A stretch of DNA of 64,000 bases from Solirubrobacteraceae bacterium (GTDB lineage Bacteria > Actinomycetota > Thermoleophilia > Solirubrobacterales > Solirubrobacteraceae), in assembly GCA_049697735.1 (NCBI GenBank), contig JBAVWI010000020.1:7174-71173 (forward strand). The letters are read 5' to 3'. Below the pieces are notes generated by a model that was given only the letters and a program-made list of their open reading frames with translations, did no database searches and was not told where the DNA came from. This document shows, one piece after another, positions 28,848 to 51,251 of the stretch; positions within the stretch are counted from its first letter, which is position 1; every line of letters begins with the position of its first letter. The translations under genes and the position numbers were made by a program.

Positions 28848-28967
28848 CCGCTCACCTCCCTCGGAGTCGACCTGGTCAACTCCGCTCCTGTTCATTGGTT
28901 CCAGCCTGGGGCGGGCGATTATGGGGCACGAATCTCGGCCTCATGAGAGGCCCCGGCCTGGTATAAA

Positions 28968-34222: not shown

Positions 34223-36367
34223 TCACGGCGAGATCAGCGGGCCAACCGCTGCGGGTCGGCTGGCCGTCTGTGCCAGCTGGAGCCTGGCCGAGGCCACGCG
34301 GTCGAGGGTCACGGCGATGCGGCTCGCGCCAAGGTCGCGCGCGACTCTCAAGTCGTCAGCGTCAAGGCTGGGGACGAGTGCCCAGCGTGCCGGCGGTGAA
34401 TCGATCCCCGGCGCTGGTCGCTGCTCCACGGCCCAAGCGACCATCGCCCCTTCAGGGATTTCGGCGGAGCCCGGTGAGGCCTCCGCGATGACCGGGGTGC
34501 CCGCACCGGCCGCGAGCACCAGCTCGTGAGCCGGGGCGACCTGGGCGGCGGGCACGATCAGATGGGTGAGCCACGCGGGCTGCTGGCGAAGCTGGGTGGC
34601 CAGCCCCGCCATCCACCCCCGATCCGCAGCGCGGGAGAGGTCCAGGGCGGCAACCCAGCCCGCGACGCTCAACTCGCGCCTAACGGACCGGGACGTACCC
34701 ACGCTGGCTGGCCGTGGGGTGTCGGCGTCGGGGAGGGCGTGCGCGGGGCTCAGCTGGAGGATCACGCCGTCGGCACCGGAGGCTGGGGCGAGGTCGATCT
34801 CCGCTACGGAGGTAACCAGGGCGTCGACGGCCAGGTCGCGCAGTTGGTCGGCCCATTCCAGCAGCTCATCGAGGCCCTCCGGTTGACGCGGGGAGAGGAC
34901 CGGGACTGGGCCCAGGATGACCAGTCCGCCATCCCCGTCCACCGAGAGCACGTCGCCCTCGTTGACCGTGACTGCGCCGATGCGAAGGTAACGTCCGAAC
35001 TCGCTGATCTCGATCTCCTCGGCCCCGCAGACGCAGCAGCGTCCGAGCCCACGGGTTACCACGGCGGCATGGCTCGTCTTGCCTCCGCGGGTGGTCAGCA
35101 GGGCCTCCGCGGCGAGGATGCCGTCGAAGTCCTCGGGACGCGTCTCCCGCCGGGCCAAGATCACCGCCTCACCGGCCTCTCGCCGCCCGATCGCGGCGCG
35201 GCTGTCGAAAACCACGGGGCCGGTGACCAGTCCGGGCGAGGCCCCGATGCCGGTGGTCAGCACCCGGTGAGGATCGAGCCGATCGAGATCCAGATGCGGG
35301 CGAAGCTCATCCTCCAGCGCCCGGGCGTCGACGCGGGCGATCGCCTCGGACGCGTCGATCACGCCATCGCGGGCGAGCTCGAAGGCGATACGGACTGCGG
35401 CAGGCGCCGAGCGTTGGCCGATTCGAGTCTGGAGGATCCACAGCTCGCCTCGCTCGACGGTGAACTCGATCTCGCACATATCGCGGTAGTGGGCCTCGAT
35501 CGCCCGGGCGGTCGCGGTCAGCTCGGCGTGCGCGTCCGGAACCAGCCGGGACATCTCCCCGAGATCGGCGGCATTGTGGGTTCCGGCCACGATGTCCTCC
35601 CCTTGGGCGTCGGCAAGGTAGTCGCCGAACAGCTCGGGCGCCCCGGTCGACGGATTCCTGGTGAAGAGGACACCAGTCCCTGACCGCGGTCCCGCGTTGC
35701 CGAACACCATGGCCTGGACGACCACCGCCGTGCCCGTGTCGGCGAGCTTGCGAAACCGGCGATAGGCCCGGGCCCGAGGACTGTTCCAGCTCTCGATAAC
35801 GGCGGCCACGGACTGCCTGAGCTGTACCCAGGGGTCGTCGGGAAACGGCTCGCCAGTGGCCTTCGCGTAGGCCTCGAGCCGCACGGCGACTGTCTGCTCA
35901 GGATCATCGGACGCCTGAAGCTGCTCGGTCGAGAGTCCCCGGACCGTGGTCCCGAAGCTATGGATGAGGCGCGCGTAGCAGTCCTGGGCCAGGGAGGGGC
36001 TGCCGAACTGACGCGCCAGGCCGGCCACGGTGGTCGGTCCGACGCCGACGTTGAGGATCGTGTCCATCATTCCGGGCATCGAAGTCGGCGCGCCGGAGCG
36101 GACGCTGACCAGCAGGGGCTGCTGGGGGTCGCCGAAAGCTCGCCCCAGCACCGCACCGACCCCGGTCAGGGCGAATCTGATCTCATCCATGAGCCCGCCG
36201 GGAATCTCACCGCTCGCGGCGTAGGCACGTGAGGCGGCGGTGGTGACCACGAAGCCGGGAGGCACCGCGACCCCGAGCCTGGTCAGCTCGCCGAGGTGGG
36301 CTCCCTTCCCGCCCAGCAGCGCGGTGGCCTCGCGGCCCCCCTCGTGGAAGCCGACTACGTAGCCCAT
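34223..36367 (-). CDS. pyruvate,phosphate dikinase-like protein: intact ATP-grasp and phosphohistidine swivel domains, truncated/degenerate C-terminal domain
   Basis: 714 aa from ATG 36367. PPDK signatures run up to the swivel His: LLGGKGAHLGEL, LLVSVRSGAPTSMPGMMDTILNVG, RNPSTGAPELFGDYLADAQGEDIVAG, DMCEIEFTVERGELWILQTR, TTRGGKTSHAAVVTRGLGRCCV. After LDELLEWADQLRDLAV only ~215 aa remain, and I see no CRTEHMF-type motif. Confidence 0.8.
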   Translation of the reverse strand: MGYVVGFHEGGREATALLGGKGAHLGELTRLGVAVPPGFVVTTAASRAYAASGEIPGGLMDEIRFALTGVGAVLGRAFGDPQQPLLVSVRSGAPTSMPGMMDTILNVGVGPTTVAGLARQFGSPSLAQDCYARLIHSFGTTVRGLSTEQLQASDDPEQTVAVRLEAYAKATGEPFPDDPWVQLRQSVAAVIESWNSPRARAYRRFRKLADTGTAVVVQAMVFGNAGPRSGTGVLFTRNPSTGAPELFGDYLADAQGEDIVAGTHNAADLGEMSRLVPDAHAELTATARAIEAHYRDMCEIEFTVERGELWILQTRIGQRSAPAAVRIAFELARDGVIDASEAIARVDARALEDELRPHLDLDRLDPHRVLTTGIGASPGLVTGPVVFDSRAAIGRREAGEAVILARRETRPEDFDGILAAEALLTTRGGKTSHAAVVTRGLGRCCVCGAEEIEISEFGRYLRIGAVTVNEGDVLSVDGDGGLVILGPVPVLSPRQPEGLDELLEWADQLRDLAVDALVTSVAEIDLAPASGADGVILQLSPAHALPDADTPRPASVGTSRSVRRELSVAGWVAALDLSRAADRGWMAGLATQLRQQPAWLTHLIVPAAQVAPAHELVLAAGAGTPVIAEASPGSAEIPEGAMVAWAVEQRPAPGIDSPPARWALVPSLDADDLRVARDLGASRIAVTLDRVASARLQLAQTASRPAAVGPLISP

Positions 36368-36419
36368 AGGGGGCAAGTGTGACCGCAAACCAAGCCCGAC
36401 ACAGAACCTAGCCTACCAC

Positions 36420-36431
36420 CCAACCGGTTGG
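36420..36431. promoter_or_regulatory. operator-like palindrome CCAACCGGTTGG (site 1)
   Basis: Perfect 12-bp palindrome in the divergent gap between the PPDK-like gene and hyuA. Flanks are CCTACCAC...TAGG. Confidence 0.6.
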
Positions 36432-36511
36432 TAGGGAGCCTCGGAACCAGCCTGCAGCTACGGTTCCGGCTTGAGTTGACATGGAAGATCACCGCCTCTA
36501 GGATGAGCCTC

Positions 36512-36523
36512 CCAACTGGTTGG
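36512..36523. promoter_or_regulatory. operator-like palindrome CCAACTGGTTGG (site 2)
   Basis: Same gap, about 75 nt before GTG 36599. Followed by TTGGG. Confidence 0.6.
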
Positions 36524-36598
36524 TTGGGACTCGAGTGAGAGGGATTAGGCACGCGCTCTCGTAGGGCCTGCCGCTGACCCGAAGGGAGCTGGTTAAGC

Positions 36599-38704
36599 GT
36601 GAGCTACATCTGCGGCATCGATGTCGGCGGGACGTTCACGGACTGCGTGGTGGTCGGCGCAGACGGCACGGTGACGGTGGCGAAGTCCTCGTCGACTCCG
36701 GGGGACTTCTCGCGAGGCATTTTTGACGTGCTCGGCGTCGCCGCCGGGCAGCTCGGCCTCGAGGAGAGCGAGTTTTTGGGAAGCATCACGGCCCTGTTTC
36801 ACGGCACGACGGTGGCCACCAACGCGATGGTGGAGCGCAAGGGCGTCGACTCGGCGATGTTGGTCACCCGAGGTCACCGCGATGTCCTCAGCATCATGCG
36901 AGGCGCTGGCCGCACCGCAGGGCTCGCGCCTGAGCAATACCTGCAGGTCTCGGTGGCCAACAAGCCGGCGCCGATCGTGCCGCGCAAGCGGATCGGTGAG
37001 ATTGCCGAACGAGTCGACGCCAAGGGTCAGGTGGTGGTCGAGCTCGACGAGGAGTCGGCGCGAGCGACGGTGCGCCACCTGCTCGGGCTCGGAGTACGGA
37101 GCATCGGCGTCTGCCTATTGTGGTCCTTTCAGAACGCGGGCCACGAGGAACGCCTCAAGGAGATCATCCTCGAAGAGGCCGGCGGTGACACGTACGTCAC
37201 GCTGTCCTCGGAGCTGATCCCCAAGTGGGGGGAGTACGAGCGAGCCGTCGGGACGGCCATCAATGGCTACATCGGGCCGCTCGTGCGCGATTACCTCTCG
37301 GATCTCCGCGAGCGTGGCACCGAGCTGGGGATGAACGGCCGAATCCTCATCATGCAGGCCAGTGGAGGCCTGGCCGAGGCGGCACGCATTGTCGACGTGG
37401 CGGTTCAGACCATCGGCTCCGGCCCGGTGGCTGGGGTCACCGGCTCTAGCCGGTTCGGGGACGAGATGGGAACGCCGAACGTGATCTGCACCGACATGGG
37501 CGGTACCACGTTTGACGTCGGGCTGGTCGTCGACGGGCGGCCGGTCCGCCGAGCGTCGAGCATCGTCAGCCAGTATGAGTACGCCCTGCCCCAGGTCGAC
37601 GTGCGGTCGGTCGGCGCCGGGGGCGGGAGCATCGCCTGGATCGATTCCGTGTCCAAAGCCCTGCGTGTCGGTCCCCAGAGCGCGGGCGCCGCACCGGGGC
37701 CGGCCGCCTACGGACAGGGTGGCCTCGAGCCGACCGTCACCGACGCCGACCTGATCCTCGGCTACATCGACCCCAACAGCTTCCTGGGCGGCAACATGAA
37801 GCTCGATCGTCAACTGGCCGAGGCGGCCCTGGACCGGGTCGCCGAGCCTCTCGGCCTCGGCCGGTCGGAGCTGGCGGCCGGGATTGTGCAGATCGTCGAG
37901 ACTCAGATGGCCGAGCTGATCCGCCAGATGACAGTGCAGAGCGGGTATGACCCGCGCGACTTCGTCGTCTATGCCTACGGTGGTGCCGGCCCCACCCACG
38001 GGGTCGGCTACGCGGCCGAACTCGGTGCGCGCTCGGTGGTGGTTCCCCTGCTCGATCTGGGGGCGGTCTGGTCGGCCTTCGGGGTGGCGGCCAGCGACCT
38101 GGTCGAGCTTGTGGAGTCAACCGACATCATGCGCCAGCCGTTCGATCTCGAGCGGCTGAACAACTCGCTGAGCGGGTTGGAGAGCACCGCGCGCGAGCGG
38201 CTGGTGTCCCAGGGGGTGGCCGCCGAGGACGTCGAGGTGACCCGTCGGGCGTTCCTGCGCTACACGGCCCAGATCCACGAGGTCGATGTCCTGGTCGGGT
38301 CCGGCCCGGTGGACGAAGCTTCGGCGGCACAGCTGGTGGCGGAGTTTCAGGAGCGCTACGAGCAGCTGTTCGGCAAGGGCTCAGGGTTCGCCGGGGCCGG
38401 CATCGAGCTGGTCAGCGTCAGCGCCGAGGGTCGCGGACGCCTTGAGTCCCAGCGCCAGGTCGCCGAGCACGTGACGCACCGGGCCACCGGTACCGGGCAG
38501 ACAAGAGAGCTCGCGGCCCGGGAGGTCTACTGGCCGCGAGAAGGAGTGCGCATGACCACCAGCGTGTTCGACGGTGCATCACTTCGCCCCGGGGACCAGA
38601 TGTCAGGCCCCGCAATCGCCGAGCTTCCGCACACGACGATCGTCATCCCGCCCGGCTACACGGCCGTGATCGACGAATTCGGCGATTGCGTGATCGAGCT
38701 CTGA
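36599..38704 (+). CDS. hydantoinase A / oxoprolinase / acetone-carboxylase-beta family ATPase subunit
   Basis: 701 aa. MSYICGIDVGGTFTD, TTVATNAMVERKG, MGGTTFDVGLV, GPQSAGAAPGPAAYGQGG, and other actin-fold hydantoinase_A signatures. Confidence 0.9.
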   Translation: MSYICGIDVGGTFTDCVVVGADGTVTVAKSSSTPGDFSRGIFDVLGVAAGQLGLEESEFLGSITALFHGTTVATNAMVERKGVDSAMLVTRGHRDVLSIMRGAGRTAGLAPEQYLQVSVANKPAPIVPRKRIGEIAERVDAKGQVVVELDEESARATVRHLLGLGVRSIGVCLLWSFQNAGHEERLKEIILEEAGGDTYVTLSSELIPKWGEYERAVGTAINGYIGPLVRDYLSDLRERGTELGMNGRILIMQASGGLAEAARIVDVAVQTIGSGPVAGVTGSSRFGDEMGTPNVICTDMGGTTFDVGLVVDGRPVRRASSIVSQYEYALPQVDVRSVGAGGGSIAWIDSVSKALRVGPQSAGAAPGPAAYGQGGLEPTVTDADLILGYIDPNSFLGGNMKLDRQLAEAALDRVAEPLGLGRSELAAGIVQIVETQMAELIRQMTVQSGYDPRDFVVYAYGGAGPTHGVGYAAELGARSVVVPLLDLGAVWSAFGVAASDLVELVESTDIMRQPFDLERLNNSLSGLESTARERLVSQGVAAEDVEVTRRAFLRYTAQIHEVDVLVGSGPVDEASAAQLVAEFQERYEQLFGKGSGFAGAGIELVSVSAEGRGRLESQRQVAEHVTHRATGTGQTRELAAREVYWPREGVRMTTSVFDGASLRPGDQMSGPAIAELPHTTIVIPPGYTAVIDEFGDCVIEL

Positions 38705-38728
38705 GCGCCGAGACCAACCAGGAGAGAC

Positions 38729-41062
38729 ATGGCCACACTTGAGAACAACGTAATCGCCGAGAACTGGAACGAGGCCAGCGACGGTTACCTGGCGCCGCAA
38801 CGGATCAGCACCACGGCACCCCTGCACACGGAGTCCAAGCTCGATATTGACCCCATCTCCTATGAGGTCATCCGTCACGCGCTCTGGAACATCAACATCG
38901 AGCACGGCGAGACGATCCTCAAGGTTTCCGGATCGCCGATCGCGCTCTACTCGCATGACTTCAACCCGGCGATCACCGCCGAGGACGGAGAGCTCGTGTA
39001 CTTCGGGCAGTACGTGCAGCATCTCTGCGCGGGTGCGCCGGCCGGAGTGAAGTGGACGCTCGAGTACCGCGATGTCAACCCCGGCATTGCCGACGGCGAC
39101 ATCTTCCTGACCAACGATCCGTGGATCTCCTGTAACCATCAGCAGGACATCGTTCTGCTCAAGCCAGTCTTCTGGGAGGGAGCGATCTTCGCCTGGGTGA
39201 CGAGCACGCTGCACCACTACGACCTGGGCGGGACGACGCCAGGGAGCTTCTGCCCCGATGCCAAGGACATCTACTACGAGCCGTCCCCAATCCCGCCGAT
39301 CAAGATCGTCGAGGGCAACGTCATCAGGATCGACGTCGAGGACATGGTCCTGCGCAAGTCCCGGCTGCCCGACCTGGTCAAGCTCGATCTACACGCGATG
39401 ATCGCGGGCTGCAACGTCGCCGAGCGGCGCATGCACGGGTTGTGCGAGAAGTACGAACCCGCGGTCGTCAAGGGGGCAATGAAGAAGATCAGTGACAACT
39501 CCGAGCAGGTCTTCCTGGCTCGGCTTCGCGATATCCCGGACGGCGTCTGGCGCGACCGCACCTACCTGGAGATGGCCCTGCCTGGCGACCGCGAGATCTA
39601 CAAGTTCGAGCTCTCGGTGACCAAGGAAGGTGACACGCTGACCTTCCGCAACGAGGGCACCGATCCCCAGTACGGCGCGATCAACAGCACTATCGTGGGC
39701 TTCCGCGGCTCGATCATGACCGGCCTGATCGGCGCCTTCCTCCACGATCAGCTGTTCGCTTACGGCGGCCCCATGCGCCACATCAAGTTCGAGCCGACGC
39801 CGGGCACGCTGACGTGCGCCCGCTATCCCGCCGCCGTCACCTGTGCCCCGAACACCGGCATGCTTGTCGTACTCTCGCAGGCCAACGCGGTGATCTCCAA
39901 GATGATCTCCTGCTCGGCTAACGAGGCGGATCGCCGCGAAGCGACAGCGAAGTTCGGCGGCAGCCAGTTCCCGATTCTCTCGCTGGCCGGGACCGACCAG
40001 TGGGGTGGCCAGTTCGCCACCGTGCTGTTGGACCCGATGATGTCCGGGATCGGCGCCTTCAGCCACCGCGATGGCGTCTCCACCGGCGGGTACCCATTTG
40101 ACCCCAAGGCGATCGCCCCCAATGTCGAGTTCAACGAACAGTTCTTTCCCATCCTCTACCTCCATCGGACCGAGCTGGCGGACTCGGCCGGACCCGGTCG
40201 CTTCCGGGGCGGCGCCAGCGCTTCGTGGGCGGTGGTCCCCCATGGGACCGAGGAGATCAACCTGGCCACCTCCGCCTCGGGCGTGTGGGTGCCGACCGGC
40301 AACGGCATGTGGGGTGGCGGTACCGCCACCACCAACCGCTTCCGTATCAAGTCGAACACGGACCTCGAGGAGCGCTTCGCGGCCCGCGAGGTCCCGCAGT
40401 TCGACGAGCTGGCGGGCGACACGCGTTACATCGAGCCCAAGGAGACGGGAACCGTCCAGCATCGCGGTGACGTGCTCGAGATCCAGTATCCGGCCGCCGG
40501 CGGATGGGGCGATCCGTTTGAACGTGAGCCGAGCCGGGTTGCGGCCGACGTCGAGGAAGGATTCGTGAGCGTGGAGGGCGCGCGCCGCGACTATGGCGTG
40601 GTGGTGACCGACGACGGCGACGAGGTGAGCGTGGATGCAACCGAGACCGAGCGGGTCCGGTTGGCGGAGACCGATCGCCGGCGCAGGGAAGCGCGGCCCG
40701 CGGTGCCCAGTGAGAACACACGGGTCCCCCGCGGCTCGGGTCGGATGGGACTCGGCGACGCGGTCACCTTGGAGCTCGCCGACGGACACGCCACCTTCCG
40801 CTGCGCGCACTGTGACGCTGAGCTGGGGGTCGACCCGCCTGACTACAAGACGGGCGCCGTGGTCATGGATCGTCCGCTGACCGAGCGCGTTCCCGGCTTT
40901 GTGCCCGGCGACAGCGAAGCCGCCAATCAGCTCGTACATCGCGAGCACTACTGCCCGTCCTGCCTGGTCAGACTCGACGCCGAGGTGGTCCGACAGGACG
41001 AGGCTTCGCTCGTCGACGTCGAGATCTGGGCTCCGCCGGCCTCGATCTGGGAGCAGGCTTGA
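38729..41062 (+). CDS. hydantoinase B / oxoprolinase / acetone-carboxylase-alpha family subunit with C-terminal four-Cys (zinc-ribbon-like) extension
   Basis: 777 aa. DPISYEVIRHALWNI, DGDIFLTNDPW...HQQDI, GPGRFRGG, GGWGDPFEREPSRVAADVEEGFVSVEGARRDYGVV. A ~110-aa tail follows, with CAHC (from 40802) and YCPSC (Cys from 40952). Confidence 0.88.
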   Translation: MATLENNVIAENWNEASDGYLAPQRISTTAPLHTESKLDIDPISYEVIRHALWNINIEHGETILKVSGSPIALYSHDFNPAITAEDGELVYFGQYVQHLCAGAPAGVKWTLEYRDVNPGIADGDIFLTNDPWISCNHQQDIVLLKPVFWEGAIFAWVTSTLHHYDLGGTTPGSFCPDAKDIYYEPSPIPPIKIVEGNVIRIDVEDMVLRKSRLPDLVKLDLHAMIAGCNVAERRMHGLCEKYEPAVVKGAMKKISDNSEQVFLARLRDIPDGVWRDRTYLEMALPGDREIYKFELSVTKEGDTLTFRNEGTDPQYGAINSTIVGFRGSIMTGLIGAFLHDQLFAYGGPMRHIKFEPTPGTLTCARYPAAVTCAPNTGMLVVLSQANAVISKMISCSANEADRREATAKFGGSQFPILSLAGTDQWGGQFATVLLDPMMSGIGAFSHRDGVSTGGYPFDPKAIAPNVEFNEQFFPILYLHRTELADSAGPGRFRGGASASWAVVPHGTEEINLATSASGVWVPTGNGMWGGGTATTNRFRIKSNTDLEERFAAREVPQFDELAGDTRYIEPKETGTVQHRGDVLEIQYPAAGGWGDPFEREPSRVAADVEEGFVSVEGARRDYGVVVTDDGDEVSVDATETERVRLAETDRRRREARPAVPSENTRVPRGSGRMGLGDAVTLELADGHATFRCAHCDAELGVDPPDYKTGAVVMDRPLTERVPGFVPGDSEAANQLVHREHYCPSCLVRLDAEVVRQDEASLVDVEIWAPPASIWEQA

Positions 41063-41073
41063 GCGCCTCTCCG

Positions 41074-41406
41074 ATGAGCATCGTTGGACGCGGCACGTTG
41101 GTGTCCGGCGATGGGTTCGAGGGTCGCCTCGTTCGCGCCGACGACGTTGACGCCGTACTCGATCTCCTCGGCCAGGACCTGGGCGAGGCGGTTCTGCTCA
41201 CTGACCAGGCTTCGGCGACAGCGGTGGCACCGCTGTTGACCAGCCTGGCCGGCGTGGTCTGCACCCAGGGTGGTCACACCGCCCACCTGGCGATCGTCTC
41301 GCGGGCCCTGGGCCTGCCGTGTCTGATGGGGGCCATCTTTGAAGCCGAGGCGCAGCCCGGGGCGCGAGTTCGGGTCACCGATGACGGGGCGGTCCACTCC
41401 GGATGA
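41074..41406 (+). CDS. free-standing PEP-utilizer mobile ('swivel') phosphohistidine domain protein
   Basis: 110 aa (115 if TTG 41059, which overlaps the hyuB stop). GRLVRADDVD...AVLLTDQASATAVAPLLTSLAGVVCTQGGHTAHLAIVSRALGLPCLMGA aligns by eye with the GGxT(S/A)HAAI(V/L)xRxxGxP swivel motif, including the His. Confidence 0.75.
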   Translation: MSIVGRGTLVSGDGFEGRLVRADDVDAVLDLLGQDLGEAVLLTDQASATAVAPLLTSLAGVVCTQGGHTAHLAIVSRALGLPCLMGAIFEAEAQPGARVRVTDDGAVHSG

Positions 41407-42539
41407 GGGCGCTGCTGGATCCACAGGCTGTCATCGCGCGCTTTGGAGCGGACCTGTCCGGAACGATCCGGCGGGAGCGACGCACGGCGATGAAGTCTCC
41501 GCTGTTCGATCTTCCCGGACGCTCCTCGCTCGGGTTCGCGGTCACCTATGCGGTGGCTCCCGAGTTCATCGAGCGCCTCGAGACCGAGCTGACCGGGGCC
41601 GAGGCCGGCGCCCTGATGCGAGAGCCGCTGTCGCGTCCTTACTTCCTGCAACTTTTCATTCTCGTCGAGGGATACCTAGCCGGCCGCGAGCAGATCCTGC
41701 TTGACACCGGCGGAGCGTTTCGGACCCCGGCGGAGGCCGGTAGTGATCGGGAACGGACCGCGCGTGTGGTCTCGTGGTTCGCCGAGGCTTGCGAGGCCTA
41801 TCGCCAGGATGGGGAGCTGTTCCCCGGTGACGATGTACTTGGCCAGCCGGTGCTCTCCGAGCCGCAGCTCCAGAGTCTGCTTGAGGCGTCGGCGGTCGCG
41901 GCCTCGGACGCCGAGCGCGTGCGCAAGGCATTCGGACAATTGGAGCTGTATGCCATCACGCTGCACGGGGAGCAGCGCGACGGCATCTTTGACCACGGTC
42001 CCTACCGGGACAAGGTCCGCACCCTGGCCGTCCACGAGGTCAACGATCTCGACAACGACTATCTGCCATGGGCTGACGCGGAGACTCAGCTCGGCGTCGA
42101 TGCGGTCGGTGTTGTGCGGGCTTACCCCCCGGCGGTGGCGATGCGCTTTGACCTGTTCGGGACCATGAGTCCGGACCCGGTCACGGCCACCGGCCGGGAT
42201 CTCGCGCTGTGCAAACGCGACCGGGACGGTCTCGCGCCGCTAGACCTCAACGAGCTCGAAGCCCTGGCCGAGCGCGCGCAGCTGGCCACCACGATCCTGT
42301 ATCGCCGGTTCGCGGGCTGGGATCCCGCCTACCGCATCCGGTACGGGGCCGGTCAATTCCTCAACCATCTCGTGCCCTTTGCCCGCCTGGCGAGTAGCCC
42401 CGGACTCGAGTCCTGGCTTACTGCAGCCGGCGACGCGGCCGCCGAGGCTGAGATGCCCCGGCTTCAGCCTGGACAGCCGCGATCGATCTGGTCTCATTTC
42501 GCCACCACCGATCGCATCTTTACGCCGGTGGCCGAGTGA
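41403..42539 (+). CDS. hypothetical protein, no recognised domain
   Basis: 378-aa ORF. ATGA overlap with the swivel-domain stop, and its own stop overlaps the next start (TGATG). Good coding bias by eye. Confidence 0.6.
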   Translation: MRALLDPQAVIARFGADLSGTIRRERRTAMKSPLFDLPGRSSLGFAVTYAVAPEFIERLETELTGAEAGALMREPLSRPYFLQLFILVEGYLAGREQILLDTGGAFRTPAEAGSDRERTARVVSWFAEACEAYRQDGELFPGDDVLGQPVLSEPQLQSLLEASAVAASDAERVRKAFGQLELYAITLHGEQRDGIFDHGPYRDKVRTLAVHEVNDLDNDYLPWADAETQLGVDAVGVVRAYPPAVAMRFDLFGTMSPDPVTATGRDLALCKRDRDGLAPLDLNELEALAERAQLATTILYRRFAGWDPAYRIRYGAGQFLNHLVPFARLASSPGLESWLTAAGDAAAEAEMPRLQPGQPRSIWSHFATTDRIFTPVAE

Positions 42540-44629
42540 TGTCAGCGGCCACGGTCGAGTCCACCGCGGGCCTGCGCGCGCTACTCGAGCCTGGCGGCGT
42601 GGTCGTCATCGGGGCGTCAAACCGCGAGAGTAACCTGGGACTGCGCTTTACCCGGGGGCTCCAGCGCCACGGCTATGCGGGACCGGTTTCGGTGGTCAAC
42701 CGGCGCGCCGAGCCCGTTGACGGCATCCCGGGATACGAGTCACTGGAGCAGGTGCCGGGTACCGTCGACTTGGCGGTGATCGCGGTGAACGCGGGTGCGG
42801 TCGCCGAGGCCATCGATGCCTGCGGGGCGCGCGGGATTCGCGCCGCGATCGTCTTCACCTCCGGGTTCGGGGAAGTCGGCGGCGAGGGGATGATTCGCCA
42901 ACGGGAGATCGCCGCCCGAGCCCGGGTGGCCGGGGTCCGTCTGATGGGGCCGAACTGTGTGGGTTTTGTCAACGTTCCCAAACGCGTGTGCGCGATCGCC
43001 TCGGGCTTTGCCTTTCGCTCCGAGCTGCTTGCCGGGAGCTTGTCGGTCATCACCCAGAGCGGGGGCGTGGCCGGCCTGATCGGCGAGCGGGCGCAGGACG
43101 TCGGCATCGGGCTGTCGCACGTCATCTCGACCGGTAATGAGGCCGACGTCACCGCCGGAGAGCTGGTCGACTACCTCGTGGCCGAGGGGTCCACCCGGTC
43201 GCTGGCCTTGTACCTCGAGGCCGTCCGTGAGCCCCAGCGGCTCGGCGAGGCGCTCGTCCGGGCTCGGACGGCGGGCATCGGGGTGGCCATCTTCAAGGCC
43301 GGGGCGGGTGAGCGCACGGCGGCTGCCGCGGCTGCGCATACCGGGTCGGTGGTCGGTGATGACGCCGGCTTCGAGGCCTTCTGCCGGCAGGTCGGGGCTG
43401 TGCGGGTGCACGACCTTGACCATCTCTTTCTGGTCGCGCCGGTGATCGCTGCCCTGGACACTGCTGGGTCTCGGGTTGGGGTGCTGTCGATCTCCGGCGG
43501 GGCCGCGGTGGCCGTCGCCGACGCCTGTGAGCGCTGCGGCTTGGAGCTGCCGCCACTCTCCGAGGTAACCCAAGCGGGCGTTGGCGAGATGGTGCCGGGT
43601 TTTGCCTCCCGGCAGAACCCGGTCGACATCAGCGGGACCTTTGTCGTCGACATGCCCCAGTTCCAGCGCTCGTTGGAGATCCTCACCGGTGCCCCTGAAT
43701 TCGATGCCGTCGTCCTCGTCCAGACCGTCCATCCCGAGTCATTGGCGAATCGAGTCGCCGAGGTCATCATCGGCGGGGCCGACCCGACTCGGACCTCGAT
43801 CATGTGGGCGGCCGGGAACCAGACGCGCGCCGCCCGGCGCCGACTGCGCGAGGCCGGCTTCGGCGTTAGCGAAAGCCCGACAGCGTGCGCCATGGCCGTA
43901 GCCGCCGCCACCACGTCGCGGCGGCTCGAACCACCCGCCCTTGCTTGGCCCGAGTCTGGTGGCGCTACACCCGGGTGCGCCTCCGAGGCCCTCGAGTTGC
44001 TGGCCGCCCATTCAGTCCCGGTGGCACCGATGGAAGTCGTGACCACTGCCGCTGAGGCGAGCGCAGCGGCCGAGCGGTTGGGCTTTCCCGTTGTCGCCAA
44101 GGCTGATTTGAGCTCACTGGCGCACAAGAGCGAGCACGGTGGGGTCAAGCTCGGATTACGAGACGGCCGCGCGGTGCAAGCCGCCTTCGCCGAGCTCGAC
44201 GCTCGAGGCCTGGCCGGGGACGGAGTGCTGGTTCAGAAGGCGGTTTTGGGTAGCCGGGAACTCCTGGTTACAGCGGTTGTCGATCCCGTGTTCGGCCTCG
44301 CCCTGGCAGTCGGCTTCGGTGGGGTCCTGACCGAGGCCATCGGCCGGGGTGCGCTGCTGCTCCCGCCGCTCACCCCCAGCGGTCTTGCCGCGGCGCTGGA
44401 CAGTGCCGGGCTGACTCGCCTCGTGGGGTCATTCCGAGGGGCGGCGGCGATCGATCTCGGCCAGTTGCTGGCCCTCGGCGGGGGGCTGCTCGAGGCAGCC
44501 GCCCAGCTTGGCGGCCTGCGCCATCTGGAGCTCAACCCGGTGATCGTGGGCGATGACGGAAGCGTGTGCGCGGTCGATGCGCTGATCGATACCAACGTCG
44601 AAATGAGGCCCGATGCTCCAAGCGGTTGA
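42539..44629 (+). CDS. ADP-forming acyl-CoA synthetase (fused CoA-binding / succinyl-CoA-synthetase-like / ATP-grasp; acetate--CoA ligase ADP-forming family)
   Basis: VVVIGASNRESNLG, VNRRAEPVDGIPGY, DLAVIAV, MGPNCVGFVN, AAAAHTGSVVGDD (phosphohistidine loop), plus a C-terminal ATP-grasp (GFPVVAKADL...GGVKLGL). Confidence 0.85.
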   Translation: MSAATVESTAGLRALLEPGGVVVIGASNRESNLGLRFTRGLQRHGYAGPVSVVNRRAEPVDGIPGYESLEQVPGTVDLAVIAVNAGAVAEAIDACGARGIRAAIVFTSGFGEVGGEGMIRQREIAARARVAGVRLMGPNCVGFVNVPKRVCAIASGFAFRSELLAGSLSVITQSGGVAGLIGERAQDVGIGLSHVISTGNEADVTAGELVDYLVAEGSTRSLALYLEAVREPQRLGEALVRARTAGIGVAIFKAGAGERTAAAAAAHTGSVVGDDAGFEAFCRQVGAVRVHDLDHLFLVAPVIAALDTAGSRVGVLSISGGAAVAVADACERCGLELPPLSEVTQAGVGEMVPGFASRQNPVDISGTFVVDMPQFQRSLEILTGAPEFDAVVLVQTVHPESLANRVAEVIIGGADPTRTSIMWAAGNQTRAARRRLREAGFGVSESPTACAMAVAAATTSRRLEPPALAWPESGGATPGCASEALELLAAHSVPVAPMEVVTTAAEASAAAERLGFPVVAKADLSSLAHKSEHGGVKLGLRDGRAVQAAFAELDARGLAGDGVLVQKAVLGSRELLVTAVVDPVFGLALAVGFGGVLTEAIGRGALLLPPLTPSGLAAALDSAGLTRLVGSFRGAAAIDLGQLLALGGGLLEAAAQLGGLRHLELNPVIVGDDGSVCAVDALIDTNVEMRPDAPSG

Positions 44630-45656
44630 CGATTACCCCTTTCATCAGAGTGCCCAGACGTTTGACACTCCGACGACAGACGATGTGCGGTGGTTTGACC
44701 GGTACTGGTTCATGACCGGGGACGTCGAGCAGCGGGTGTGTGTCATCACCGGCATCGGCACCTATCCCAACGCGCGCCGGATCGACGCTTACGCGATGGT
44801 TGGTGACGGCGAGCACCAGTGGAACTTGCGCGTAGGCCGCGAGCGCAGCCGGGACCCGCTTGATCTCAGTAGCCACGGGCTGCGCTTTGAGCTGGCCGAC
44901 GCGATGAGCAAATGGCGCCTGGACTGTGATGGCCTCGACGAGTTCGGCTTCAGCCTCGAGTTCGATCAGCGCTACCCGCCGAACAACCTGCCGGCCCTGT
45001 TCGTGGAGCGGGCTGGTCAGGTGATCATGGAGATGGGCCACTTTGCCCAGGGCGGTGGAATGCGTGGAGATCTCCGCCTCGGGGAGCGCAAGTTCCGCGT
45101 CGATGGCTGGCCATCGCAGCGAGATCACTCGTGGGGTCGCCGACCGCCGTCGGGCAAGGTCCGCAGCGGCATCCACGTCTGGCTGCCGGCCCAGGTCGGC
45201 GATCGAGAGATCTGGCTGTGGTTTCGCGAGAACGCGAGCGGCGAGCGCAAGGGCCTGGAGGGCCTCGTGCGCTCGCGCGACGGACACTCGTGGGTGATCG
45301 AGGACGTCGAGCATGACATCGAGGTCAAGGAAGAGGTCGCCCCACACCGGCAGCTGGTTCGAGCCCGGCTCGACCTACGTTTGAGCGACGGGCAGCGGCT
45401 TCATGTGGAGGTCGAGCCCCTAGTCCCGATCTTCATCGCCGGCGGTGGTTACGTGGACGGTGCCGAGGCTCAGGGAACCTTCGAGGGCCAGAAGGTGCAG
45501 CGCTGGTCTATCGCTGACAATGGACGCGCGGAGATCCCCAACACGATCATCGATCACTTCTCCCGGGTCACGGTTGACGGGGAGCCCGGTCAGGGCGTAT
45601 TCGAGCTCTCGCTGGGCCGATACGAGCCGCTCGGCCTGGGCGACCTGCCGGGGTAG
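44613..45656 (+). CDS. conserved hypothetical protein (paralogue of 58459-59496)
   Basis: 347 aa. Shares MxxxxDDYxFHQ and VDGWPSQRDHSWG with the other copy (IDGVPGHRDRSWG). Overlaps the upstream gene by 17 nt. Confidence 0.7.
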   Translation: MLQAVDDYPFHQSAQTFDTPTTDDVRWFDRYWFMTGDVEQRVCVITGIGTYPNARRIDAYAMVGDGEHQWNLRVGRERSRDPLDLSSHGLRFELADAMSKWRLDCDGLDEFGFSLEFDQRYPPNNLPALFVERAGQVIMEMGHFAQGGGMRGDLRLGERKFRVDGWPSQRDHSWGRRPPSGKVRSGIHVWLPAQVGDREIWLWFRENASGERKGLEGLVRSRDGHSWVIEDVEHDIEVKEEVAPHRQLVRARLDLRLSDGQRLHVEVEPLVPIFIAGGGYVDGAEAQGTFEGQKVQRWSIADNGRAEIPNTIIDHFSRVTVDGEPGQGVFELSLGRYEPLGLGDLPG

Positions 45657-45664
45657 TCAGGGCC

Positions 45665-46258
45665 ATGGCACCGACCCTGGAAGCGGAATTCCGCGTTCTG
45701 CACTCTCTTCGCATCAAGGGGGCAGCGTCCGCCGACGCGGTAGCGCGCTTGGCGGGCGACGCCGAGGTAACCGATGAGCTCGCCGTGCTGGAGCAGGAGG
45801 GGTGGGTCCTACGCCGCTCCACCACCTCGACTCTGGTCTTCGCCCTGACCGCGAGTGGACGTGAACGTCATGGCCAGCTATTGGCCGGCGAGGGCGATGA
45901 TTCAAGCCGGGCGGTTCTCGCTGCCGCCTATGACGGCGCCTTCCGGCCGCTGAACCGGACCTTCAAGGCCCTGTGCCTACGCTGGCAGCAGGCCGACGAG
46001 CACTTCGAACTCCTCGAAGAGGTCATCAGCACTCATGACCAGATCGATGCCTTCCTGGCCGACGCTGCTGAGCAGCGGCTGCGCTTCAGCGTCTACCGCG
46101 TGCGGCTGGACGCACTGGTCGAGCGGGTCCAGGACGGCGACACGGAAGCCTACGTGGCCCCGCTTGGTGAGTCCTACCACAACGCCTGGTTTGAGCTCCA
46201 TGAGGACCTGATCATCACCCTCGGACGCAGCCGGGCCGAAGAGGAGAACGCGGCGTGA
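45665..46258 (+). CDS. hypothetical protein with possible N-terminal winged-helix region
   Basis: 197 aa. LHSLRIKGAASADAVARLAGDAEVTDELAVLEQEGWVLRR...ALTASGRERHGQLL looks MarR/wHTH-like. The remainder is helical and unassigned. Confidence 0.5.
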   Translation: MAPTLEAEFRVLHSLRIKGAASADAVARLAGDAEVTDELAVLEQEGWVLRRSTTSTLVFALTASGRERHGQLLAGEGDDSSRAVLAAAYDGAFRPLNRTFKALCLRWQQADEHFELLEEVISTHDQIDAFLADAAEQRLRFSVYRVRLDALVERVQDGDTEAYVAPLGESYHNAWFELHEDLIITLGRSRAEEENAA

Positions 46259-46906: not shown

Positions 46907-48237
46907 CCGTCCTCGCCCACACTGACCACGATGCGGTGGTCGTCGGCGGGGGTGTCGGGGGTCTGGCGGCCGCTGCCGAGCTCGTGCTGGCCGGTCGGCG
47001 TCCGCTCCTTCTCGAGCAGTCAGATCGTCTCGGGGGTCGCTTCTCGACCATTGAGAAGGACGGCTACCGGCTGCCGACCGGGGCGGTGGCGATCGAGACT
47101 GCAGGTCCGTTTTATGAGATGTTCGGCCGGCTCGGAATCGACGCCGACCTTCGCGTGCCCGACCCGCCCGTGATGATCCATGTCCGGGGCCGCAACCTCC
47201 AGCCGGGCGCCGCGGTCTGGAAGCACATGATGAAGCGAGTGACCAAGGCGGCCGGCGCGGTCGCCGAGGGGCTTAGCAAGGCGCGCTCCGGGAGTGACGA
47301 GGGTTCCGAGACGCTCGAGCACTGGGTGCTTCAGTACACCAAGAGCAAGACTCTGCTGAGCCTGTTTCAGTCGCTGGCTGCCTCGATCTTCACGGTTAAC
47401 GCCGATGAGCTTCCGGCGAGTGCCTTCTTCCGACTGCTGCGTGAAACCGGGGGCTACAAGAGCTTCGGTTACGCGCCGCGAGGAAATCGAGAACTCGCCG
47501 ACGCCATCGGGGAGGCGATTGTCGAGCGTGGTGGCGAGGTCCGTCTGTCCACGTGTGTCGAGGCGGTGAGGATGGCCGAGGGACAAGCCGACGCGGTCTT
47601 GGCTCGGGGTCCCGGCGGTCAGGCGGAGTGGCTCCCGACCCGTGCCGTGATCTCCAACGCCGGGCCCCGGGCGACGGCCCGGCTCTTTGCCGAGACGCCG
47701 GCGGCCGATGACTTCGCGCGCCGGGTCAGCGACGTCGCCCCGAGCTCGATGCTGGCCCTGGCCTTCTCGACTCAGGAGCCGGTGGTCGAGCCGCCCGGGA
47801 TCTGGGCCTTCACCGACACGCAGCGGATGTGCAACCTGGCCAATCTCACCGCTACGTGTCCCGAGCTGGCCCCCGAGGGCCGCAGTCTCTACGAGGCCTA
47901 CTCGGTGCCCCGGCCTTCGGTCGGCGGCAACTTCGACGTCGAGCAGGAGCGCAAATTGCTCGAGCAGGATCTGCTCAAGTTCGTGCCCGGGTTTGCCGGA
48001 GCCGAAACCGTTCTCTTCAAGGTCATGCGCGGGGATGTGCCCGCCCAGCAGTGTCGTCCTGGGTATGACCCGGACATCGTTACCCCAGTGGGAAACGTGC
48101 TCGACGTCGGCGATGGGGTCAAGCCCTATGGTTGGATCGGAACCACGGCCTGCGCGGAGACCGCTCGCCGCGCCGTAGAGCAGCTCCTATCTGGGGCTCT
48201 GGCCAGTCCGTCTGGCGTTGAGCGGGTCGTAGCATGA
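46903..48237 (+). CDS. FAD/NAD(P)-dependent oxidoreductase (phytoene-desaturase/amine-oxidase fold)
   Basis: DAVVVGGGVGGLAAAAELVLAGRRPLLLEQSDRLGGR dinucleotide-binding motif. 444 aa. Confidence 0.8.
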   Translation: MTVLAHTDHDAVVVGGGVGGLAAAAELVLAGRRPLLLEQSDRLGGRFSTIEKDGYRLPTGAVAIETAGPFYEMFGRLGIDADLRVPDPPVMIHVRGRNLQPGAAVWKHMMKRVTKAAGAVAEGLSKARSGSDEGSETLEHWVLQYTKSKTLLSLFQSLAASIFTVNADELPASAFFRLLRETGGYKSFGYAPRGNRELADAIGEAIVERGGEVRLSTCVEAVRMAEGQADAVLARGPGGQAEWLPTRAVISNAGPRATARLFAETPAADDFARRVSDVAPSSMLALAFSTQEPVVEPPGIWAFTDTQRMCNLANLTATCPELAPEGRSLYEAYSVPRPSVGGNFDVEQERKLLEQDLLKFVPGFAGAETVLFKVMRGDVPAQQCRPGYDPDIVTPVGNVLDVGDGVKPYGWIGTTACAETARRAVEQLLSGALASPSGVERVVA

Positions 48238-49175
48238 GTGGCCGTCGGACCGTCCTGACCACGGCCGCCGCGGCTGTTGAGCAGATCCCACCAGGCGCGA
48301 CGATTGGCTTCGGCGGTCTCATGAACACGTGTCATTCGATGCCCGTGGTCCGGGAGATCATCCGCCGCGGGGTCGGCGACCTGCACGTGGTTGGGATTGC
48401 CTCGGGACTCGAGGTGGACATGCTGATCGCCGCGGGGCTCGTCCGGCGGGTCTCAACCCCAACCGTGTCCGCGGAGACCGTGCAGGCGATCGCGCCCGCG
48501 TTTCGCCGCGCCGCGGAGGCGGGCGAAATCGTCGTTTGGGACTGTGACGAGGGAATGATCTACGCCGCGCTTCAGGCCGCGGCGCAGCGCGTCTCGTTCG
48601 CGCCGTGGCCGGTGGGAATGGGCTCGTCCTATCCCGAGGTCAACGACGGCATGGAGATCATCGAGTCGCCCTATACCGGTAAGCCGGTGGTCGCCATCAA
48701 GGCGATCCCCATCGACTTCGGATTCGTGCACGCCGCCTGCTCGGATCCCTACGGGAACGTACAGGTGATCGGCGGAGGGTTCGGGGACCGGGCCGTGGCT
48801 CGCGCCTCGCGCGAGGTGTTCTGCACCGTGGATCGAATCATCCCCAACCACGAGGTGAGGCGAAATCCGTTGGCCACCTCACTCCCCGGCATGGATGCAG
48901 TCGTCCATGCGCCATTCGGATCGCATCCGTTCGCATCTCCCGGTCACTACGTCAACGACGTGCCGTTCATGCGCGAATACCTGGCGGCGGCCGACCGCTG
49001 GCTGCGTGCCGATGACCGCGGTCCGCTCGACGCCTGGTTCGACGCGTGGGTGCGCGCAGTCCCGACGCACTGGGATTACCTCGATAAGCTCGGGCCCGAA
49101 CGTCTGTGGTCGCTCGAGGAGGGCTTGCACTACGACGATCTGGCTATCCCCGCGCTCGAGGAGACGATTGCATGA
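48234..49175 (+). CDS. CoA-transferase-like subunit A (glutaconate-CoA-transferase/IpdA-like), pair 1
   Basis: IPPGATIGFGGLMNTCHSMPVVREIIRRGVGDLHVVG...DCDEGMIYAALQAAA...DFGFVHAACSDPYGNVQV. Confidence 0.8.
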   Translation: MSGRRTVLTTAAAAVEQIPPGATIGFGGLMNTCHSMPVVREIIRRGVGDLHVVGIASGLEVDMLIAAGLVRRVSTPTVSAETVQAIAPAFRRAAEAGEIVVWDCDEGMIYAALQAAAQRVSFAPWPVGMGSSYPEVNDGMEIIESPYTGKPVVAIKAIPIDFGFVHAACSDPYGNVQVIGGGFGDRAVARASREVFCTVDRIIPNHEVRRNPLATSLPGMDAVVHAPFGSHPFASPGHYVNDVPFMREYLAAADRWLRADDRGPLDAWFDAWVRAVPTHWDYLDKLGPERLWSLEEGLHYDDLAIPALEETIA

Positions 49176-49966
49176 GCGAGGATTCCTACTACGTCGACGA
49201 GCTCCGCGCTTGTCTGCTCTCCCGTGAATTTGAGGATGGCGAGCGCGTCTTCCTCGGAGCCAACGTCAACATAGGCCGGGGAGCCCTCCTGCTCGCCCAT
49301 CTGCTCAGGGGTCCCAACATGCGCGTCATGCTCGGGCTGTCGTGGACGAACCTCAGCGACCACCGAGAGGTCGGGCTGCACCCGGACTCAACCGACTTTC
49401 GCGACGCCCGCTGGGCCGAGGCTTACGTAAGCCTGGACACCATGATCAACAGCTACCGCTTCTTCTCGACGACCTTCGTGATCAGCGCGCTGCAGGTCGA
49501 CGGCTTTGGCAACTCCAATCTGATCGGCCTGGGCGACGACCACCGCCGGCCGCGGCTGCGAGGTCCGGGGGCGATCGGGTCGGTCAGCTCGACGGCCTAC
49601 TGTGACCGGTTCTACATCACGCCTCCGCGCCACACCCAGGACATCTTCGTGCAGCGGTGCGACTTCGTCTCCTCGGTCGGCTGGGGTTCCGGCGGTGCCG
49701 ACGCCCGCGACAAGCTGGGCCTCCCCGGCGGCGGACCCAAGCTCTGCGTCACCCCGATCTGCGTGATGGATTTCGAGGAGGAGACCAAGGCCATGCGCTT
49801 GCGTTCGGTGCATCCGGGGCATTCCGTCGAGGAGGTGGTCGACAATACGGGCTTCGAGTTGATAATCCCCGATGAGGTGCCGGATACTGTGCCCCCCCAA
49901 CCGGATGAGCTCCAACTGTTACGCAACGTGATTGATCTCCAGGGCCTACTGCGCCAGGCTGCCTGA
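49172..49966 (+). CDS. CoA-transferase-like subunit B (IpdB-like), pair 1
   Basis: 264 aa from ATG 49172 (ATGA overlap). VDELRACLLSREFEDGERVFLGANV...ISALQVDGFGNSNLIGLG...VTPICVMDFEE...LRSVHPG. No SENG motif seen. Confidence 0.78.
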   Translation: MSEDSYYVDELRACLLSREFEDGERVFLGANVNIGRGALLLAHLLRGPNMRVMLGLSWTNLSDHREVGLHPDSTDFRDARWAEAYVSLDTMINSYRFFSTTFVISALQVDGFGNSNLIGLGDDHRRPRLRGPGAIGSVSSTAYCDRFYITPPRHTQDIFVQRCDFVSSVGWGSGGADARDKLGLPGGGPKLCVTPICVMDFEEETKAMRLRSVHPGHSVEEVVDNTGFELIIPDEVPDTVPPQPDELQLLRNVIDLQGLLRQAA

Positions 49967-49968
49967 CC

Positions 49969-50616
49969 TTGGCCAGCGCGGCGTCAAAGGGCAAGCCTGC
50001 CGCCAGGCGGCCGATGTCGCCCCGCCGCCGGGAGGTTCTCGATGAGGCCGCCCGGCTTTTTCACGAGCGGGGTTACATGGGTACGAGCATGGACGACATC
50101 GCCGATGCCGTCGGTCTAACCAAGGGCACGCTCTATCACCACTTCCCGAGCAAGGCGGTGATTCTCGGGGAGATCTACGAAGAGGCGGTCAGCTTCGTAC
50201 TCGCGCACATGTCAGAGCTCGAGCAGCAGGGATCGGCGACCGCCGCGGTGCGCTCCATAGTCAGGGCGATCGTCGAGCTGATCGGCGAGCATCGCTATCA
50301 CGTCACGGTCTTCTACCAGGAGATGCGCTGGATCGGCGAGTGGCTTCCGGCCAAGGACGCCCGGGCCATTCGCAAGCAGATCCGGGAGTACATCGACAGC
50401 GTGGAGAGGGTGATCCAGCGCGGCATCGACGAGGGGGACTTCCGGCCCACCGACGCTTCGGTGGCCGCCTATGCACTGATCGGCATGGCCTCCTGGACGT
50501 ATCAGTGGTTTGAGCCGAGCCGACGTCTGTCGGCCGAGGCGGTCAGCGAGCTGCTGTCGCAAACCTTCCTGGAGGGGCTCGTCGTCCCGGCCGGACGCGG
50601 TCCGGCCAAGGGCTGA
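49969..50616 (+). CDS. TetR/AcrR family transcriptional regulator (candidate regulator of the supercluster)
   Basis: VLDEAARLFHERGYMGTSMDDIADAVGLTKGTLYHHFPSKAVIL. Starts 2 nt after the preceding stop, so it is co-transcribed. Start may be ATG 50014. Confidence 0.88.
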   Translation: MASAASKGKPAARRPMSPRRREVLDEAARLFHERGYMGTSMDDIADAVGLTKGTLYHHFPSKAVILGEIYEEAVSFVLAHMSELEQQGSATAAVRSIVRAIVELIGEHRYHVTVFYQEMRWIGEWLPAKDARAIRKQIREYIDSVERVIQRGIDEGDFRPTDASVAAYALIGMASWTYQWFEPSRRLSAEAVSELLSQTFLEGLVVPAGRGPAKG

Positions 50617-51248: not shown

Positions 51249-51251
51249 TTG

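Follow-up and report, generated by a model that had tools for sequence, protein, structure and literature searches.

We analysed a 64-kb window (the whole stretch of DNA under study) from a Solirubrobacteraceae metagenome-assembled genome (MAG), and focused on an operon in which a small, free-standing phosphohistidine swivel carrier is encoded between the subunits of a HyuAB-type enzyme and a 378-aa protein of an unannotated family, here called X. The carrier gene lies at 41059–41406 on the forward strand when read from a TTG start (115 aa), or begins at the ATG at 41074 (110 aa). Upstream of it are genes for a HyuA-type (ASKHA) ATP-binding subunit (36599–38704, +) and for a HyuB-type metal subunit with a gamma-subunit-like Zn ribbon fused at its C-terminus (38729–41062, +). 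Downstream are those for X (41403–42539, +), an ADP-forming acyl-CoA synthetase (ACS; 42536–44629, +) and an Rv3169-family (DUF7064/DUF7065) protein homologous to 25-phosphosteroid lyase (25-PSL; 44613–45656, +), while a VadK-type truncated pyruvate, phosphate dikinase (PPDK) is encoded divergently (34223–36388, −). Every open reading frame (ORF) named by the original prediction, which had been made by a model from the sequence and a list of its ORFs, was found at its predicted position, and profile searches agreed with its naming of hyuA, hyuB, the swivel-only gene of 110 or 115 aa and the truncated PPDK. It had passed over X and the ORF at 44613–45656, which proved to be the key partners. 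The genes overlap by 4 nt at hyuB/swivel (counted from the TTG at 41059), swivel/X and X/ACS, and by 17 nt at the junction of ACS and the Rv3169-family gene. We prefer the 115-aa form of the swivel protein over the 110-aa form, because the TTG is preceded by GGGAG 5–6 nt upstream and matches the hyuB/swivel overlaps, also of 4 nt, in two distant relatives, L006 and L007.

Swivel-histidine enzymes, among them PPDK, phosphoenolpyruvate (PEP) synthase, enzyme I, RPH and phenylphosphate synthase, are textbook cases of catalysis by domain motion. The small protein of the window matched the corresponding Pfam domain, PF00391, at 42.6 bits (cut-off 23.1; E 4.5e-11) and had no other Pfam match. Its motif is GGHTAHLAIVSR, in which the catalytic His is the second His of GGHTAH (His76 in the TTG numbering, His71 in the ATG numbering); the motif of the swivel domain has been defined as GGxT[SC]H...R (PMC12167813). 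This His was invariant in 51 of 51 distinct small swivel homologues, within GGxT[SA]H[LV]AIV[AS]R, as were both Gly preceding it and the Arg that follows. The protein database held 37 swivel homologues, all of 98–125 aa and each with PF00391 only. An AlphaFold2 model of the 110-aa protein reached a pLDDT of 94.3 and, searched with Foldseek, matched over its whole length the His domains of RPH (TMq 0.76) and PPDK (0.73) and the C-terminal domain of pyruvate kinase (0.81–0.84). By domain, motif and predicted structure, the small ORF is a conserved and intact phospho-carrier, as the original prediction had held. We also considered whether it could be the remnant of a decayed larger PEP-utilizing gene, a view favoured by the small size of the ORF and by nothing else. 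This we regard as practically ruled out by conservation, because the motif with its His is kept throughout, the model is a complete and confident domain and the homologues are of similar size; in addition, synteny is kept down to 31–40% identity of the neighbouring X.

For the comparison of related loci, we gathered 77 metagenome loci with an X profile, added loci by exact look-up and mapped cluster proteins by tblastn. A scan of the genome collection with narrow patterns from a close alignment (A1) returned at least three loci. The loci range in GC from 0.53 to 0.73, and a few of them carry Solirubrobacterales or Actinomycetes labels. Co-occurrence was counted in 22 non-redundant loci, including the window, with at least 6 kb on each side of X. 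The swivel gene was found alongside X in all 22, followed by the DUF7064/65 family (21), HyuA (17), HyuB and a stand-alone PEP-utilizers_C domain (16 each) and PPDK_N (3). The original prediction had placed the swivel in a hydantoinase operon, and the linkage to HyuAB was indeed conserved: it spans deeply diverged loci and at least five gene orders, and hyuB and the swivel gene are directly adjacent in two distinct arrangement classes, including loci with the order X'-X-HyuA-HyuB-swivel, where X' is a paralogue of X. However, swivel and X occur without HyuAB in 5 of the 22 loci, and the constant partner of the swivel, judged by co-occurrence of their genes, is X and not HyuB. X homologues near the first swivel neighbourhoods that we collected (~390 aa, 34–38% identical to X) likewise had no Pfam match and no HyuAB nearby. 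The association also extends to single polypeptides, with natural fusions (P0157, P0221 and P0229) that carry an N-terminal swivel, including its His, followed by X.

X belongs to a rare family of 250 clusters among 1.84 billion (1.84e9) representative proteins, as counted by an exhaustive HMMER search. It had no match in Pfam or NCBIfam, and comparison with PDB sequences, by single sequence and by profile, returned nothing usable. Its AlphaFold2 model was confident (pLDDT 94.6, pTM 0.93), and a Foldseek search of this model against the PDB gave no fold match, RPH included (best E 0.099, TM about 0.1). This negative result is meaningful because the same PDB library readily gave RPH and PPDK for the swivel model. 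With both sequence and fold searches empty, X cannot be assigned to the ATP-grasp, RPH substrate-domain or TIM-barrel class.

The conservation pattern within the family suggests that X is catalytic. Its invariant polar residues comprise H188-G-E-Q-R-D-G194, E212, D215 and several Arg, and further motif residues are N218 and H322. In many loci X stands in tandem with an upstream paralogue, X'. H188, Q191, D193, D215, N218 and H322 are all retained by the downstream copy in 29 of 29 such pairs; in the X' of these 29 pairs, the same six positions are replaced, mostly by N, A, V, G, E or L, while the scaffold residues are kept (examples at L017:8778–9968 and L001:10366–11535). With such an enzyme-like set of invariant polar residues next to a degenerate paralogue, the pairs suggest a heterodimer of a catalytic subunit with a degenerate partner. 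The clade of the window has a single X of the catalytic type, without X'. Two distant members of the family, P0166 (728 aa) and P0229 (777 aa, with the N-terminal swivel mentioned above), share a C-terminal extension of ~250 aa that ends in ...H(T)VW.E.HED...REA and has no Pfam match, and in both the X motif is degenerate.

The carrier needs a source of phosphoryl groups, and the neighbouring genes offer two kinds of candidate. The truncated PPDK of the window matched NCBIfam PRK05878, the short 'pyruvate, phosphate dikinase' family, at 482 bits (cut-off 456), and in Pfam it matched PPDK_N (2.3e-40) and PEP-utilizers (7e-18), with no PF02896. It has an ATP-grasp domain and its own swivel domain (GGKTSH, His440), and it aligns to solved PPDK structures over residues 10–544 only, so that its earlier description as a PPDK-like protein with intact ATP-grasp and His and a degenerate acceptor domain was a fair one. 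The last ~180 residues had no Pfam match and no detectable PEP/pyruvate domain, and could represent either such a domain in decay or sequence unrelated to it. This tail (34223–34770, −) is rich in Ala and Pro, and the relatives of the protein in L006 and L007, of 507 and 485 aa, are shorter by ~215–235 aa. The gene stands divergently upstream of hyuA in the window, L005, L006/L009 and L007, where X is 46–95% identical.

Most related loci have a different module. In L017, a 322-aa stand-alone PEP-utilizers_C protein (E 7.5e-67), most similar to the PEP synthase C-terminal domain (336 bits), is encoded right after the swivel, and a PEP-utilizers_C domain directly follows 36 of the 49 swivel genes with enough downstream sequence. 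By tblastn, the corresponding PF02896 domain is absent from the whole 64-kb window. PPDK_N and PEP-utilizers_C never occurred in one locus (3/22 versus 16/22 loci). We read this pattern of genes as non-orthologous replacement of the donor module, with PEP as the likely donor in most lineages and ATP in the clade of the window. The mutual exclusion supports the PPDK-like gene as a candidate donor, a role that the original prediction had already proposed for it.

The family of the truncated PPDK raises a further possibility. VadK (Rv1127c), a truncated PPDK of M. tuberculosis, autophosphorylates on its swivel His with ATP/Mg and has been described as a regulatory kinase that contacts methylcitrate-cycle enzymes (PMC13400623). 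The protein of the window resembles it in belonging to PRK05878, in its combination of ATP-grasp and His domains and in lacking a functional PEP/pyruvate domain. It differs in its extra tail of ~180 aa and in pairing with a hyuAB-swivel-X operon, whereas VadK is reported to be a regulator of the methylcitrate cycle without a defined phospho-acceptor. The truncated PPDK could accordingly be a VadK-like histidine kinase at the head of a regulatory phosphorelay, in which the swivel and X tune HyuAB, ACS or other enzymes and no metabolite is phosphorylated, and a small stand-alone carrier does recall the relays of the phosphotransferase system (PTS). We consider such a relay very improbable, given that a VadK-type protein is missing from most loci, which use a PEP-binding domain instead, that X has enzyme-like invariant residues and a degenerate paralogue, that the genes sit with overlapping frames inside catabolic operons, and that the swivel-X fusions look like RPH-type enzymes.

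The second constant neighbour of X is the lyase homologue. The protein encoded at 44613–45656 matched the NCBIfam family Rv3169_fam at 221.5 bits (cut-off 150) and, in the PDB, aligned with 25-PSL (9FZN_A) at E 1.3e-23, residues 2–333 against 5–352; 9G2I and 9G4C were also matched. The DUF7064/65 family, present in 21/22 loci, usually stands directly beside X'/X, and PSL-X'-X is the tightest gene triple across the arrangements. The type I DUF7064/65 protein of L017 had no direct match to 25-PSL, and the DUF7064/65 subgroups are homologous to one another by profile-profile comparison (hhalign, 98–99%). In Sterolibacterium, the APH-family kinase 25-HSK and 25-PSL together dehydrate a tertiary alcohol; the phosphoryl potential of the 25-phosphoester between them equals or exceeds that of ATP, the APH-type kinase has a Keq of 0.34, and tertiary phosphoesters can phosphorylate ADP (PMC8449060). 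PEP or a dikinase as the driving force would make chemical sense because of this high potential.

The window itself holds a second 25-PSL homologue (58459–59496, +), which is 26% identical to the one at 44613–45656 and matches 9FZN at E 4.4e-19. Its gene overlaps by 17 nt that of an APH-family phosphotransferase (59480–60433), and by homology the two (58459–60433) form a canonical pair of kinase and lyase, as in Rv3168/Rv3169 or 25-HSK/25-PSL. The operon lyase homologue has no APH partner and accompanies the swivel and X. By analogy with the canonical pair, the swivel and X, together with their donor, are candidates for the kinase that serves it. We also looked at whether HyuAB and an APH kinase exclude one another, as the raw counts would have it (APH in 0/17 loci with HyuA and in 5/5 without HyuAB), and rejected this, since the five loci represent two clades and L074 has both. 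A kinship of the lyase homologue with the epsilon subunit of Apc, suggested by their similar size, was also considered and dropped.

The explanation that we find best, and to which we give about an even chance, is a relay from donor to swivel His to X to a small molecule, from which the phosphate is then eliminated by the lyase. The swivel carrier and X would act as one enzyme, whose carrier is loaded by an interchangeable donor: the VadK-type truncated PPDK (ATP to His) in the clade of the window, and the stand-alone PEP-binding domain of PEP-synthase type (PEP to His) in most other lineages. At the active site of X, the carrier would give up its phosphoryl group to a small molecule specific to the pathway, for which a hindered alcohol or enol of a hydrophobic compound is the likeliest candidate. 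X is proposed as the pathway-specific phosphotransfer site because, with either donor, it is the only site left for the carrier. The 25-PSL homologue of the same operon would then eliminate the phosphate, giving a net ATP- or PEP-driven dehydration like that of 25-HSK/25-PSL, and HyuAB-gamma (HyuAB with its fused gamma-like domain) and ACS would take the carbonyl and the acid intermediate of the same catabolic pathway. Domain identities, motif conservation, linkage, fusions and donor replacement are the observations on which this explanation is built, and from them we infer which way the phosphate is transferred, what kind of substrate receives it and that kinase and lyase are coupled.

Several points weigh against this relay. 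X is without a recognisable nucleotide-, metal- or substrate-binding fold, so that calling it the acceptor site is an argument by elimination, and the direction of phosphoryl flow is not deducible from sequence. The truncated PPDK has its own swivel, which leaves the need for a second, free-standing one unexplained, and L001, L003 and L044 have neither donor within 10 kb. Type III loci hold an APH/PSL pair as well as swivel and X, so the lyase may be fed by a kinase other than X. The linkage to HyuAB (16–17/22) is nearly as strong as that to the lyase, and the relay gives no mechanistic account of it. Lastly, the 22 loci are phylogenetically related, and the counts overstate the number of independent events.

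The phosphoryl group could also flow the other way. To conserve energy, X would then take it from a high-energy intermediate of the pathway (an enol phosphate, a tertiary phosphoester or an acyl phosphate, supplied for example by HyuA, an APH-type kinase or ACS) and pass it through the swivel to pyruvate (yielding PEP) or, via the truncated PPDK, to AMP (yielding ATP). PEP synthase, the nearest relative of the stand-alone PEP-binding domain, normally works towards PEP, and its domain order is mirrored by the gene order X'-X-swivel-PEPC, in which X stands where the donor-binding domain would be. As noted above, ADP can be phosphorylated by tertiary phosphoesters (PMC8449060), and in types III and IV X is flanked by ACS genes, whose products have acyl-phosphate chemistry. 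A dedicated phosphate lyase beside X suggests, on the other hand, that the phosphate is a spent leaving group; we found no precedent for such a reversal, and once activation has consumed ATP, little would be gained thermodynamically. Flow in this direction appears improbable to us.

The HyuAB genes bear on the main rival to the forward relay from donor through swivel to X. HyuA (Hydant_A_N, Hydantoinase_A and Hydant_A_C; E 4.5e-84) has intact ASKHA motifs (DVGGTFTD, DMGGTTFD and GGAGP), read from the translation and compared with the D11/D295 sites of CapA (PMC8453981). In the PDB it matched acetophenone carboxylase (Apc; 5L9W_B, 390 bits), N-methylhydantoinase (387) and CapA (361). In HyuB (Hydantoinase_B, E 5.8e-96), the metal tetrad D77, H137, D140 and H162 aligns with D41, H99, D102 and H124 of CapB (6YRA_B). 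The C-terminal ~140 residues of HyuB (about 40650–41062) contain CxxC...CPxC, and across 26 HyuB C-termini from loci with X, the column of each of these four Cys is conserved in 90% or more of the sequences. The match of this region to Acetone_carb_G was weak and below the cut-off (E 1.4e-3), and reached 9.4e-6 in L017. Acetone and acetophenone carboxylases have a conserved gamma subunit with four Cys, which hydantoinases lack (PMC5214803) and which is the mark of ketone carboxylases. Judged by gene order and the Cys pattern, HyuAB-gamma has the acxA-acxB-acxC layout with B and C fused. Compared with AcxABC and Apc, it shares the HyuA- and HyuB-type subunits, the four-Cys gamma, the A-B-gamma order of acxABC and the ATP and metal sites, while differing in the fusion of gamma to HyuB and in the lack of the alpha' and epsilon subunits of Apc; the operon and the related loci have a single HyuA-type gene. 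Sequence scores do not separate the carboxylase from the lactamase branch for the HyuAB of the window, which is as close to caprolactamase and N-methylhydantoinase as it is to Apc.

In this rival, a refined form of the original prediction, swivel and X would be an accessory kinase module of HyuAB-gamma, and the whole would be a phosphohistidine-assisted ketone carboxylase that draws its second phosphoryl group from ATP or PEP via swivel and X. Two phosphorylations are required in ketone carboxylases, one turning the ketone into its enol phosphate and one turning bicarbonate into carboxyphosphate; Apc uses a second HyuA paralogue (alpha') for this, whereas only one HyuA is encoded here. The presence of HyuAB in 16–17/22 loci through at least five gene orders, the carboxylase-specific four-Cys gamma on HyuB, and the translational coupling of hyuB and swivel in the window with their adjacency in the X'-X-HyuA-HyuB-swivel loci all fit such a machine. 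By our own estimate, the step from PEP to an enol phosphate would be close to isoenergetic, and a CoA ligase, CoA transferase or ADP-forming synthetase, found in almost every locus, suits a beta-keto-acid product. However, swivel and X lack HyuAB in 5/22 loci, and under the rival the lyase homologue, whose linkage to X is tighter than that of HyuAB, has no role. Acetone carboxylase, which has the same layout as HyuA-HyuB-gamma, needs a single subunit and a single ATP for its two phosphorylations (PMC5214803), and for this reason nothing forces a phosphohistidine input into HyuAB, whose HyuA ATP site and HyuB metal site are intact. We consider an accessory module of this kind unlikely. The original prediction is partly supported, in that a conserved phosphohistidine relay is linked to HyuAB, but a relay of phosphate onto the HyuAB-bound substrate is not required by HyuAB sites that are complete, and is a possible though less likely reading.

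A broader proposal makes X a new catalytic domain, its fold unmatched among solved structures, served by a free-standing carrier and by donors (PEP-binding or ATP-grasp) that are swapped between lineages, and in its strongest form joins this module to HyuAB-gamma in one machine; we hold this to be possible but doubtful. If it were true, the system would be a fourth kind of swivel enzyme, PEP or dikinase chemistry would make an enol phosphate or tertiary phosphoester beyond the energetic reach of a normal ATP/ADP kinase, leading to a phosphohistidine-assisted ketone carboxylation or dehydration, and truncated PPDKs of the VadK type would gain a first defined phospho-acceptor.

The ACS downstream of X (CoA_binding, Succ_CoA_lig and ATP-grasp_5) carries a His loop, AHTGSVVG (His268), which we take to be a phosphohistidine loop of the kind found in the ACD family. 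The original prediction had expected a downstream CoA-activating enzyme to thioesterify an acid product, and such enzymes are nearly always present in the related loci, as would be expected if an acid product is thioesterified.

Split swivel dikinases have precedents in catabolism, namely PpsAB, CreHI and HpeHI (PMC12167813). In these and in RPH, a swivel His shuttles phosphate from an ATP-grasp domain to a separate small-molecule site, as is proposed for the window; the polypeptides of PpsAB, CreHI and HpeHI are likewise split and encoded in catabolic clusters, and the Hpe pathway combines its dikinase with a ketone carboxylation step (PMC12167813). In all of them, however, the swivel is fused to an RPH-type substrate domain, whereas that of the window is a separate protein of ~110 aa, and the donor of window-type systems may be a PEP-binding domain in place of an ATP-grasp. 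The PPDK_N ATP-grasp is encoded divergently in the window but carries its own swivel, and it is absent from most related loci, which have the PEP-binding domain. PEP synthase, PPDK and PTS enzyme I share the swivel fold and the GGxTSH motif, and their other modules recur as the PEP/pyruvate domain of the related loci and the ATP-grasp of the window; here the three domains lie on separate polypeptides, X always accompanies them as an unrelated extra component, and no locus pairs an ATP-grasp with a PEP domain. The likeness to 25-HSK/25-PSL of Sterolibacterium denitrificans lies in the lyase homologue, the logic of a kinase step followed by elimination, and neighbours that include acyl-CoA synthetase, luciferase-like and phytoene-desaturase-like genes. 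In that system the kinase is of the APH family and converts ATP to ADP (PMC8449060), whereas the operon of the Solirubrobacteraceae MAG has the swivel/X module in place of an APH gene. In the literature that we searched, which covered subscription journals only in part, we found no description of a HyuAB-type enzyme linked to a phosphohistidine module and no modular kinase system of this kind. Judged from its sequences, the system would differ from those described in its free-standing carrier, an acceptor domain unlike that of RPH-type enzymes and its interchangeable donors.

If the relay through X is correct, the swivel enzymes would gain a fully split member, with a predicted acceptor fold that is unmatched and a natural swap of PEP and ATP donor modules. 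The proteins of the system are small and look soluble. The relay bears on where ketone carboxylases and enzymes of the hydantoinase type get their phosphorylations or how they divide them, on how the very high-energy phosphoesters used by phosphate lyases arise outside APH-type kinases, and on which molecule receives the phosphate of truncated PPDKs, among them VadK, a virulence factor of M. tuberculosis.

A further observation comes from related loci without HyuAB. In those with the order swivel-(PEP domain)-X'-X-ACS-ACS (L089:7455–8746, L001:8683–9972, L033 and L036), two genes of the histidine phosphatase superfamily (His_Phos_1) lie directly upstream of the swivel gene, which hints that a phosphorylated product is hydrolysed there. 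In the window, the lyase homologue is directly followed by the gene for a 197-aa protein (45665–46258, +), which had no Pfam or PDB match in our searches and is kept in the clade of the window, with 46–50% identity by tblastn in L006 and L007.

The divergent promoter region between the truncated PPDK gene and hyuA contains two palindromic boxes, CCCAACCGGTTGGTAGGGA and CCCAACTGGTTGGTTGGGA, 92 nt apart (36416–36529), which are probably operator sites. Their core, CCAACNGGTTGG, occurs at four sites in the window (36420–36431, 36512–36523, 51237–51248 and 61731–61742), where 0.02 would be expected by chance. Two of these lie in the divergent promoter, one is immediately upstream of the luciferase-like gene that starts at 51249, and one is near 61731; of the fetched loci, L005, which is near-identical, is the only one in which the core recurs. 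The core probably serves as a shared operator, to which the product of the TetR gene at 49969–50616 may bind.

Downstream of the operon are three consecutive gene pairs for CoA-transferase subunits (48234–49966, 52346–54032 and 54016–55703). The first of these pairs and the luciferase-like oxidoreductase gene (51249–52349) are syntenic in L006 and L007. Upstream, the window encodes an 858-aa single-chain protein (26319–28895, −) with an N-terminal PPDK_N domain and a swivel at its extreme C-terminus, an architecture like that of RPH/PEP-synthase-type small-molecule dikinases; it is unrelated to the operon but gives the window a second swivel enzyme. Three ECF-type sigma factors with a C-terminal SnoaL-like domain are also clustered upstream (19456–20409; 22058–23023, −; 24171–25052, +).

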